DNA from: a virus
Taxonomy: Duplodnaviria; Heunggongvirae; Uroviricota; Caudoviricetes
Reading direction: 5' to 3' (one strand)
IMG/VR virus record: IMGVR_UViG_2711768074_000026
DNA length: 9,469 nucleotides
The translations under genes and the position numbers were made by a program. Below the pieces are notes generated by a model, which worked only from the letters and a program-made list of their open reading frames with translations, was not told where the DNA came from and did no database searches. Below, piece by piece: positions 6,521 to 7,086 of the stretch. Position 1 is the stretch's first letter. Every line of letters starts with the position of its first letter.

Positions 6521-6625
6521 CCCATCAAATATTTTGATAGAAAATTCTTGTATATTATTTAATCGAAAAATCACCAAAAAGTGGCGTAAGTTAATGATTT
6601 AAAAAGAATTGTCAAAAGGTCTCCG

Positions 6626-6634
6626 TGCTATAAT
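6626..6634 (+). promoter_or_regulatory. Extended -10 promoter candidate (TGcTATAAT)
   Basis: tgc at 6626-6628 followed by tataat 6629-6634; nearest -35-like ttgtca (6609-6614) is at a short 14-nt spacing. Confidence 0.35.
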
Positions 6635-6714
6635 AGGTTATAAAGGTTGATAATCCTGATCTACAATTTTCAAACAAAAATTTTGATAGTCATTTCTCGC
6701 TTAGGTCAAGCGCA

Positions 6715-6743
6715 TTGACAACTGTCAAGGATTATTTTATACT
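6715..6743 (+). promoter_or_regulatory. Sigma70-like promoter TTGACA-17-TATACT
   Basis: ttgaca 6715-6720, 17-nt spacer, tatact 6738-6743; directs rightward transcription into the hairpin-rich leader. Confidence 0.5.
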
Positions 6744-6813
6744 TTTTCTCACTGGTGGGGGTTGAAATTTTCTAAACAGTCCCCATATAGATGATAAGCA
6801 AGAATTTCCACGT

Positions 6814-6821
6814 TATAAATA
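6814..6821 (+). promoter_or_regulatory. TATAAATA motif (T4-type late promoter consensus)
   Basis: Exact tataaata; flanking ttataaatacatgtgt resembles the second copy at 7014-7021 (ttataaatacaagtgt). Confidence 0.35.
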
Positions 6822-6880
6822 CATGTGTGAAATGATTGTTCACTTCTGAAAATCTCCTGATTCACTGCTAATTCATACAT

Positions 6881-6906
6881 CACTGGTTAGATATACAGTG
6901 CTTTTT
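6881..6906 (+). terminator. Hairpin plus T-tract (terminator/attenuator-like) 1
   Basis: cactg (6881-6885) / cagtg (6896-6900), loop gttagatata, then cttttt. Confidence 0.4.
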
Positions 6907-6964
6907 CGGTTGAATATTGTACGAATTGATTAATAATTAATCTTCTCTTTAGCAATTCGTGCTC

Positions 6965-6990
6965 CCACTGATCGGATATACAGTGGTTTT
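6965..6990 (+). terminator. Hairpin plus T-tract (terminator/attenuator-like) 2
   Basis: ccactg (6965-6970) / cagtgg (6981-6986), loop atcggatata (shares gatatacagtg with hairpin 1), then tttt. Confidence 0.4.
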
Positions 6991-7013
6991 ACAGGGTTTT
7001 CTGACAATCATTT

Positions 7014-7021
7014 TATAAATA
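7014..7021 (+). promoter_or_regulatory. TATAAATA motif (T4-type late promoter consensus), 65 nt upstream of ATG 7087
   Basis: Exact tataaata at 7014-7021. Confidence 0.35.
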
Positions 7022-7030
7022 CAAGTGTTC

Positions 7031-7051
7031 AGAGCGAAATGCTCTTTTTTT
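7031..7051 (+). terminator. Hairpin plus T7 tract immediately upstream of the first rightward gene
   Basis: agagc (7031-7035) / gctct (7041-7045), loop gaaat, then ttttttt (7045-7051). Confidence 0.45.
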
Positions 7052-7086
7052 AAGAAATTATTAATCCACATGTGAGGAATCGACTG

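Follow-up and report, generated by a model that had tools for sequence, protein, structure and literature searches.

A stretch of 9,469 nucleotides of DNA from the Caudoviricetes record IMGVR_UViG_2711768074_000026 (hereafter the window, which designates the whole stretch) includes, at positions 6609–7086, a non-coding segment that we consider the transcription-control region of the operon formed by the next two genes, ORF59 and ORF320 (ORF, open reading frame), the second of which is a putative replication initiator. In this region, a promoter, a structured leader RNA and a terminator would together constitute an attenuation-type gate for the initiator operon, an interpretation that we hold with middling confidence. 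According to this interpretation, the sigma70 RNA polymerase would start at promoter P2, near position 6750, and the nascent leader would fold into a closed domain. A large share of these transcripts would stop at the hairpin T3, giving rise to a leader RNA of about 300 nt, and ORF59 and ORF320 would be made when T3 is read through, or from a start at a second promoter-like element (box 2) used with a specificity factor. T3 is the 5′-proximal stem-loop of any transcript begun at box 2, and at that extreme 5′ end it could act as a stabilizing stem-loop. The original prediction for this segment, made from its letters alone, proposed sigma70-like promoters followed by a short-transcript or antitermination arrangement resembling lambda PR′-tR′; the sigma70 promoters, the long untranslated leader, and a hairpin with a U-tract before the first gene were borne out, but not the membership in the lambda type.

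The conservation of the region is what makes it real. Among 5,426 complete E. coli genomes, homologues were found in at least 57 (74–98% identity, all of them chromosomal), and the same synteny is present in Salmonella enterica and Proteus mirabilis; collections of 50,697 phage records and 72,556 plasmids contained no DNA relative of positions 6200–7400 and gave no DNA or protein match for ORF320 either. Columns 6520–7040 are 92–100% identical in 12 E. coli relatives, with 6940–6990 being invariant, and the coding sequence of ORF59 is 71–85% identical. In this comparison of the early region, no other non-coding DNA is as conserved as the control region, which points to selection acting on the leader. 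In E. coli, positions 6560–7010 are occupied by one of two cassettes that cannot be aligned to each other, type A (present in the window) and type B, and the type of cassette is independent of the class of ORF320. Both cassettes open with near-consensus sigma70 promoters directly after the iterons, and both share the same end: TATAAATA, 5–9 nt, a 5-bp G+C stem with a variable loop, U5–8, about 25 nt, and a Shine-Dalgarno (SD) sequence with its ATG, T3 lying approximately 35 nt before the start codon. The TATAAATA–T3 core was also observed in Salmonella and Proteus. Since the promoter-leader-terminator layout is shared by the two non-homologous cassettes of E. coli and by the Salmonella and Proteus relatives, a constitutive leader RNA of about 300 nt, or attenuation or antitermination at T3, is the most economical reading.

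The two predicted sigma70-like promoters, P1 and P2, are both present and conserved. Searching for TTGACA-17±1-TATAAT or for TGnTATAAT, we recognized P2 by the first pattern, with a score that only one other site in the window equals in the promoter scan, and P1 by the second. Because the nearest TTGTCA is only 13 nt upstream of P1 and leaves no usable −35, P1 would act as an extended −10 promoter; its TG and −10 are kept in the E. coli type A relatives and in Salmonella L115. At the position of P2, the type B cassettes carry sigma70 promoters scoring 12/12 and 11/12, with a TG. The −35 of P2 is included in the palindrome TTGACA-AC-TGTCAA (6715–6728), and P2 together with a palindrome of the form TTGAC(A)-N2-4-(T)GTCAA is kept in E. 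coli and Salmonella with variable centres; this palindrome looks like a candidate operator. The AWTTTTGATAG boxes, which lie upstream of P1 and P2 and are kept in 12 relatives, are possible protein-binding sites.

Downstream of these promoters, the leader folds into a closed multi-helix domain, for which RNAalifold gave an identical structure with 12 and with 30 distinct type A sequences (Table 1). In this long-range model, 99.2% of the cells are paired (about 16% of the paired cells as G.U) and three pairs (nine cells) have changed on both sides; its covariation score was reached by none of 500 shuffles, and slid controls were only 31–49% paired. The plus strand folds better than the minus strand in all 30 sequences (mean −41.9 versus −36.1 kcal/mol, mean z-score −4.0), the window's own copy being the least stable of them. 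The Salmonella leaders keep the invariant 3′ element ATATACAGTGGTTTT(T)ACAG, and new upstream partners (UACUGUAAAAAC, CUACUGUAUA, and UCACUGUA) pair with it and close the domain, with z-scores of −4 to −5. The leader of type B is more structured (−100 kcal/mol versus −67 for shuffles, z −7.0; minus strand, z −3.4), and one A-U/U-A covarying pair splits its sequences 4:4. A folded RNA of this kind could act in cis on its own polymerase to pass downstream terminators, as does the put RNA of HK022, a cis-acting antiterminator consisting of two stem-loops of about 35 nt just downstream of an early promoter. The RNA described here differs in being 155–230 nt long and multi-helical, it has no sequence similarity to put, and its function is a prediction.

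Table 1. Features of the control region and of the genes that follow it (positions in the window).
Feature	Position	Strand	Basis or remark
P1, extended −10 promoter TGCTATAAT	6626-6634	+	read from sequence
P2, TTGACA-17-TATACT sigma70 promoter	6715-6743	+	11/12; predicted start near 6750
Repeated box with AWTTTTGATAG palindrome	6519-6548, second copy 6668-6697		repeat D5, 77% identical
GGGGGTTG...CAGTCCCC stem	6757-6788	+	−11.3 kcal/mol; also reads as sigma32-type promoter
Box 1, TATAAATA with upstream AAGAATTTCC element	6799-6821, box 6814-6821	+	inverted repeat I2
Closed multi-helix leader RNA domain, about 155 nt	6848-7001	+	RNAalifold, pair counts, 12 and 30 sequences
Closing helix a	6848-6867 with 6981-7001	+	RNAalifold
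Hairpin H1 within the domain	6879-6902	+	RNAalifold
Weak helix b	about 6908-6912 with 6969-6973	+	RNAalifold
Helix c	6919-6933 with 6949-6962	+	RNAalifold
H1, conserved stem	6881-6906	+	7 bp in most relatives; U.C mismatch in window
H2, not supported as local hairpin	6965-6990	+	its 3′ arm and U-tract (6981-6990) form the 3′ strand of helix a
Box 2, TATAAATA, −35-less promoter-like element	7014-7021	+	predicted start near 7027
T3, AGAGC-GAAAT-GCTCT plus U7	7031-7051	+	terminator scan; only conserved hairpin with U-tract
Iteron array (TTTCAGGGGCAAAAAT units)	6320-6523		repeat families D1-D3; directly upstream of control region
ORF59, first rightward gene	7087-7266	+	annotated in relatives; conserved, 59-60 aa
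ORF320, putative replication initiator	7381-8343	+	iteron-specificity protein

Three tandem terminator-like hairpins had been proposed for this leader, and although all three sequences exist, only the last of them, T3, behaves as a terminator. H1 (CACTG-N10-CAGTG at 6881–6900, then CTTTTT) and H2 (CCACTG-N10-CAGTGG at 6965–6986, then TTTT) constitute a 25-nt direct repeat with 84% identity. Taken singly, the three hairpins are no more than chance: their energies are −5.0 (H1), −7.4 (H2), and −5.9 kcal/mol (T3), none better than 7–9% of dinucleotide shuffles. We defined a terminator as a G+C-rich stem of at least 5 bp with a loop of 3–8 nt, directly followed by a U-tract with five or more U in eight positions. 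T3 has this constitution, and the terminator scan called only 7031–7045 plus the T-run; the segments 6881–6906 and 6965–6990 have 10-nt loops and were not called, and H2 is followed by only four U. The stem and the U-tract of T3 are present in all the relatives (E. coli, Salmonella, and Proteus) and in all cassette types, the stem being kept with A-U/G.U variation in 13 of 30 sequences and the loop reading GAAAT, GAAAA, AAAA, GAAAC, TATTAC, or GTTAA (in type B, the hairpin is GAGCG-GTTAA-CGCTC).

The other two hairpins evolve differently. The stem of H1 shows a change from A-U to G-C in five sequences and from C-G to U-A in Salmonella L120, and its U-tract reads CTTATTCGA (TTATT) in 5 of 30 E. 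coli sequences and is lost in L120 (CAGTATAAAATCG; replaced by AUAAAAUCG). The local form of H2 is broken by three of four substitutions in the E. coli relatives; in L078, C6864A plus G6985U is compensatory for helix a and breaks local H2, and A6967T in L081 and G6985A in L105 also break it. In Salmonella, the 5′ arm of H2 reads CCCCTG or CACCTG, and the long-range partner still pairs with the 3′ arm. The model with three local hairpins shows no covariation and does not exceed shuffles, and neither H1 nor H2 has a counterpart in the type B and Proteus leaders, type B lacking internal terminator-like hairpins.

With this evidence, it seems very improbable that the three hairpins are independent tandem terminators, yielding RNAs of about 85, 160, 240, and 300 nt, that a phage antiterminator overcomes as at lambda PR′-tR′. 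The existence of the three hairpins with their T-runs and the duplication that links H1 to H2 speak for such a series, and the local hairpins would have time to form ahead of the long-range helix as the RNA is being made; against it stand the single call of the terminator scan, the loss of the H1 U-tract, the breakage of local H2 where the long-range pairing is kept, and the leaders that have no internal hairpins. Moreover, the comparison with lambda itself failed: no Q-like protein was found by Pfam and PHROGs scans, which covered 20 non-structural proteins, and the genes downstream, ORF59 and ORF320, are not a late operon. A lambda-type pause element would place a −10-like hexamer at about +1 to +6, and no such hexamer follows P2 (6744–6760, TTTTTCTCACTGGTGGG). 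What the region shares with lambda PR′-tR′ (6S RNA) and Q is a strong promoter, an untranslated leader, and an intrinsic terminator before the genes to be switched on; it differs in its large folded leader domain and in its internal second promoter-like box.

It is possible, though on balance doubtful, that the leader is a trans-acting RNA gene, that is, a stable regulatory or immunity RNA that is made constitutively from P1/P2, stops at T3 or is cut out of the leader, and works like P4 CI, P1/P7 C4, and N15 CA. In these systems, a structured leader RNA is transcribed from a constitutive promoter upstream of replication or antirepressor genes. Types A and B would then be heteroimmune alleles, and ORF59–ORF320 would be transcribed separately from box 2. 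This proposal is favoured by the consensus promoters in a prophage that has no recognizable repressor gene, by the finding of two non-homologous, exchangeable, and very strongly conserved cassettes in the same place independently of the neighbouring proteins, and by the very high structure scores (z −7 for type B and about −4 for type A). The 17-mer CTTTAGCAATTCGTGCT (6947–6963) also agrees with it, for it is invariant, is common to both cassettes, and remains unchanged even where its pairing partner changes; it is probably recognized as a sequence in its own right. (An exact scan of genome contigs with this 17-mer gave 66 matches in unrelated phyla, L011–L076, about the number expected by chance, and these were ignored.) In addition, within the 400 nt that precede ORF59 in L119 and L121 of Salmonella, the P2-type promoter follows a type-B-like structured module instead of preceding it, so the structured module and the P2–T3 unit can be separate.

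In contrast, no match in the region was obtained with Rfam at E ≤ 1, using the window and positions 38300–46000 of an intact relative, L010, and the C4 model RF01695 was among those unmatched. No target complementarity was found, and the ribosome-binding site (RBS) region of ORF59 varies while the leader is constant. The likeness to CI, C4, and CA includes the constitutive promoter and the structured leader; control would be exerted by premature termination, and exchangeable alleles would differ in specificity. The differences are that no Rfam match exists here, that no internal complementary target boxes were identified (the only alternative pairings seen in the leader are CACUG/CAGUG), and that the domain has roughly double the size of CI or C4.

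The position of the control region directly downstream of an iteron array was confirmed. Three types of iteron occur among the relatives (CAGGGGCAAAAAT, GTGTAGG, and CGGGGA), and ORF320 exists in three classes that are about 25% identical to one another. The class of ORF320 tracks the iteron type in 14 of 14 loci, a behaviour that is not displayed by ORF59 or by the divergent 150-aa protein. The comparison, made on loci L001–L009 and L077–L082, argues that ORF320 and the iterons are a protein–DNA specificity pair, and, given this agreement, ORF320 would be an iteron-specific protein, most simply a replication initiator. Two 24-nt direct repeats (6285–6308 and 6587–6610, 88% identical) lie on either side of the array, roughly at the borders of the iteron-cassette swaps, and may be recombination joints of the module.

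This neighbourhood makes it conceivable, if unlikely, that the region works at the DNA level as an accessory part of the iteron origin (in activation, priming, or protein binding) and that the RNA fold is secondary; strong outward transcription and AT-rich, repeat-rich DNA beside the iterons would serve an origin. The region adjoins iterons whose type matches ORF320, and it contains repeated TTTTGATAG boxes and palindromes, the conserved palindrome over the −35 of P2, and an AGCA-N5-TGCT dyad within the invariant 17-mer. However, the stem substitutions are biased to G.U-compatible changes, which are meaningful only in the RNA of the plus strand, and it is this strand that folds better in every sequence. 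The leader cassettes swap independently of the iteron type, and DnaA boxes are not enriched (4 found versus 2.4 expected).

Returning to the attenuation-type gate, a comparable arrangement is found in the rep leaders of iteron plasmids and in pT181 and pIP501, which are attenuation-controlled plasmids. As in these, iterons stand beside the promoter and leader of the gene for an iteron-specific protein, and a terminator is located just upstream of the RBS; the difference is that no convincing counter-transcript promoter or terminator was found on the minus strand inside the leader, a possible antisense RNA being located further downstream, at 7367–7300. A structured leader with a terminator before an initiator operon is a known kind of logic. 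It resembles that of lambda PR′-tR′, HK022 put, and the P4, P1, and N15 leader RNAs, but membership failed in each test run (no Q, no pause element, and no Rfam match).

Several points weigh against the gate. Beside the observed motifs, conservation, plus-strand fold, and ORF320–iteron link, its start sites and 3′ ends are predictions, and termination at T3 and the gate-opening signal are inferred. T3 is weak (−5.9 kcal/mol, not better than 9% of shuffles), and termination there may be inefficient. Salmonella does not preserve helix b, nor all of helix c. With a mean column identity of 89%, the E. coli sequences stand close to one another and provide few independent covariation events, and the alignment that served to score covariation is also the one from which the structure came. 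In L119 and L121, the structured module is not between P2 and T3. Finally, no family match to a gp55/gp33-type factor was found among the proteins scanned.

The control region belongs to a lineage that has no cultured relative and no recognizable repressor, replication, or transcription-factor genes, and it is the likely site of the replication and lysogeny decisions. It offers a series of predictions: a defined RNA fold for which specific compensatory pairs are named, one conserved terminator, a protein–iteron specificity pair, and a class of promoters without a −35.

This class is represented by the TATAAATA motifs. The two copies that had been noticed among the hairpins are indeed present, at 6814 and 7014, but they are more than an interleaved pair, since they belong to a promoter-like signal that extends over the whole phage. 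Box 2 is invariant in 30 of 30 type A and 9 of 9 type B sequences, in the type-A-like leaders of Salmonella (L115–L118 and L120), and in Proteus (L113 and L122), with varying flanks, and reads CATAAATA in Salmonella L119 and L121. Box 1 reads TACTAAATA in 7 of 30 relatives, and, together with its upstream element, it matches the box that precedes the divergent 150-aa gene (5711–5689; box 5689–5696, minus strand) as an inverted repeat with 87% identity.

In the intact prophage L010, nine copies of TATAAATA were found, all intergenic, and eight of them point at the next gene, 31–120 nt before its ATG. In the non-coding segments upstream of genes, read in the sense orientation (2,454 nt in all), TATAAATA was counted 8 times versus 0.7 expected and TAAATA 21 times versus 4.9 expected, values reached in none of 2000 simulations, and the reverse complements are not enriched. 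TAAATA is the commonest upstream 6-mer, with its 21 copies distributed in 19 of 39 segments versus 3 copies of the reverse complement, and it outnumbers the SD-related words. The boxes lie, in a strand-specific manner, upstream of about half of the phage's genes; the perfect ones precede non-structural genes, and the variants NNTAAATA stand before the genes for TerL, TerS, the portal, and the tail tube. No common −35 was detected in 12 aligned box contexts, and some boxes share AATTTC upstream and nnAGTG downstream. Over the whole prophage (L010, 10796–45900), TATAAATA/TAAATA is the most enriched strand-specific word before genes, and a G+C hairpin with a T-run often stands upstream of it.

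The T4 late-promoter element is the same 8-bp box, also without a −35 (PMC7892883). The boxes at 6814 and 7014 have this constitution, with TATAAATA at the −10 position and no conserved −35. Because the phage also has canonical sigma70 promoters (P1, P2, and one at 5160–5132 on the minus strand), the boxes most likely represent a separate, factor-dependent class of promoters. They resemble T4-type late promoters in the identical box, in the lack of a conserved −35, and in their location on the coding strand 20–90 nt before many genes. They differ in that their host is a 35-kb temperate siphovirus in which no gp55, gp33, or gp45 was detected, in the additional flanks of some boxes, and in the placement of perfect boxes before non-structural genes.

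If the boxes are promoters, the T4-late-type architecture, hitherto described only in phages of the T4 type and in other large lytic phages, would extend to small temperate phages. This would imply either an unrecognized specificity factor encoded by the phage or a superinfecting T4-like phage whose late-transcription machinery switches on the genes of the prophage; beside the latter idea, we note that the window carries a fragment of a Krischvirus gene. A broader proposal, which we consider rather unlikely, is that the TATAAATA boxes are real promoters of the T4-late class used throughout a 35-kb temperate siphovirus, and/or that the two exchangeable, highly structured cassettes of the leader constitute a new RNA family, cis-regulatory or acting in immunity, that gates the initiator operon; both could hold. 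If confirmed, it would be surprising to find the T4-late-type class in a small temperate phage, as well as an exchangeable pair of structured leader RNAs that has no described family.

Regarding the genes of the operon, ORF59 starts at ATG 7087 with the SD sequence GAGGA at 7074–7078, according to the RefSeq annotation of its relatives, and not at GTG 7072 of the ORF list. Its AlphaFold2 model consists of three helices (predicted local distance difference test, pLDDT, 64) and gave no significant match in a fold search, and its relatives show weak matches to HTH_Tnp_1 (6 of 19) and UPF0175 (12 of 19). ORF59 is probably a small three-helix protein of the helix-turn-helix kind. A possible identity with gp33 was rejected, because the match to PF16805 (E 0.029) was below the cut-off and appeared in 1 of 19 relatives, and the family profile found no gp33 in the PDB. 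The family of ORF320 is an orphan, with 12 representatives among 1.84 billion proteins; no family or fold could be assigned to it, and its predicted model (pLDDT 37) is unusable.

In the spacer between the two genes, a perfect TATAAATA box on the minus strand (7380–7373) is followed by the strongest terminator in the area (7338–7309, −19 kcal/mol, z −4.0). These elements predict an RNA of about 66 nt antisense to the ORF59–ORF320 spacer (7367–7300) that ends 2 nt before the SD sequence of ORF320. Such an RNA could be a counter-transcript controlling the initiator; alternatively, the box at 7380–7373 may be an AU-rich SD–ATG spacer read backwards. Inside the leader, an antisense promoter on the minus strand (6819–6791) was discarded, being weak (9/12) and having no terminator on that strand.

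Other candidate elements of the leader were also evaluated. The leader segment that follows box 1 (6821–6840) resembles the ribosome-binding region of ORF59 (7067–7079), and an exact 14-mer, GTGAAATGATTGTT, is common to this segment and to codons 8–13 of ORF59 (7112–7125); a decayed duplicate of the ORF59 start seems to make up part of the type A leader. Using CTTGAA - 14 nt - CCCCATnT to represent a promoter recognized by sigma32 (RpoH), we found GTTGAA-N14-CCCCATAT at 6761–6788, a match with 0.01 expected per window, whose bases are the same that form the stem listed in Table 1. The spacing equals that of dnaK P1 (PMC10216364). The match is present in the type A and type B cassettes of E. 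coli, is absent from the Salmonella and Proteus leaders, and reads CCCCGT in the type B sequence L110; given this absence and this mutation, a sigma32 promoter here is a weak possibility. Small ORFs in the leader were rejected, since those on the minus strand (6749–6883 and 6949–7071) are not conserved and the one on the plus strand, the 5-codon MIVHF, has no SD sequence. An inverted match of 12 nt (6010–6021/6840–6851) and a match of 11 nt (6928–6938/7056–7066) were attributed to chance, as their presence is uncorrelated across the relatives.

The lineage from which the window derives is an uncultured family of temperate siphovirus prophages of about 35 kb, integrated in ycdX, in E. coli, Salmonella, and Proteus. 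In L010, an intact copy, which is a ~35-kb prophage inserted in that gene, a large serine recombinase gene is followed by the lysis, tail, capsid, portal, and large-terminase genes on a single strand, and then by a block of small genes (two on the plus strand, a Rha-like gene, a 110-aa gene, and the 150-aa gene on the minus strand). After the 150-aa gene come 1.3–1.5 kb of non-coding DNA, ORF59 and ORF320 on the plus strand, and a TerS-like gene. The best identity of TerL to any sequenced phage is 44%, and the small proteins gave no match to a repressor, replication protein, sigma factor, or antiterminator in Pfam, PHROGs, PADLOC, or NCBIfam.

Both ends of the window (1–110 and 9362–9469) match the ends of IS1414, an insertion sequence (IS) of the IS256 family. 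A junction lies near 4121–4306, and in intact prophages some 25 kb separate the left part of the window, with the lysis genes and a C-terminal piece of a J-like tail tip, from its right part. From the IS1414 ends and this 25-kb displacement, we conclude that the window is a deleted, rearranged, and IS-flanked prophage remnant with a truncated Rha-like gene. The Krischvirus fragment mentioned above is a 312-bp internal piece (966–1277) of the inh gene of these RB49-like, T4-type phages, 96–98% identical to it, and is flanked on one side by the endolysin terminator and on the other by the CAATAAATAGTAGTG box that belongs to the following gene. The product of inh is an inhibitor of the prohead protease. 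The fragment is evidence of a recent exchange of DNA with a T4-type phage.

The left half of the 1.4-kb non-coding region (5880–6130) includes four copies of a TCTAGAATCATCTAGTAAC-type repeat and, at 6030–6090, G+C-rich hairpins; all of these vary by cassette among the relatives. A stem-loop with the sequence CAGTCGGGC(A/T)A(A/C)GCCCTCCT, which is also cassette-variable among the relatives, is duplicated at 5735–5754 and 6163–6182.

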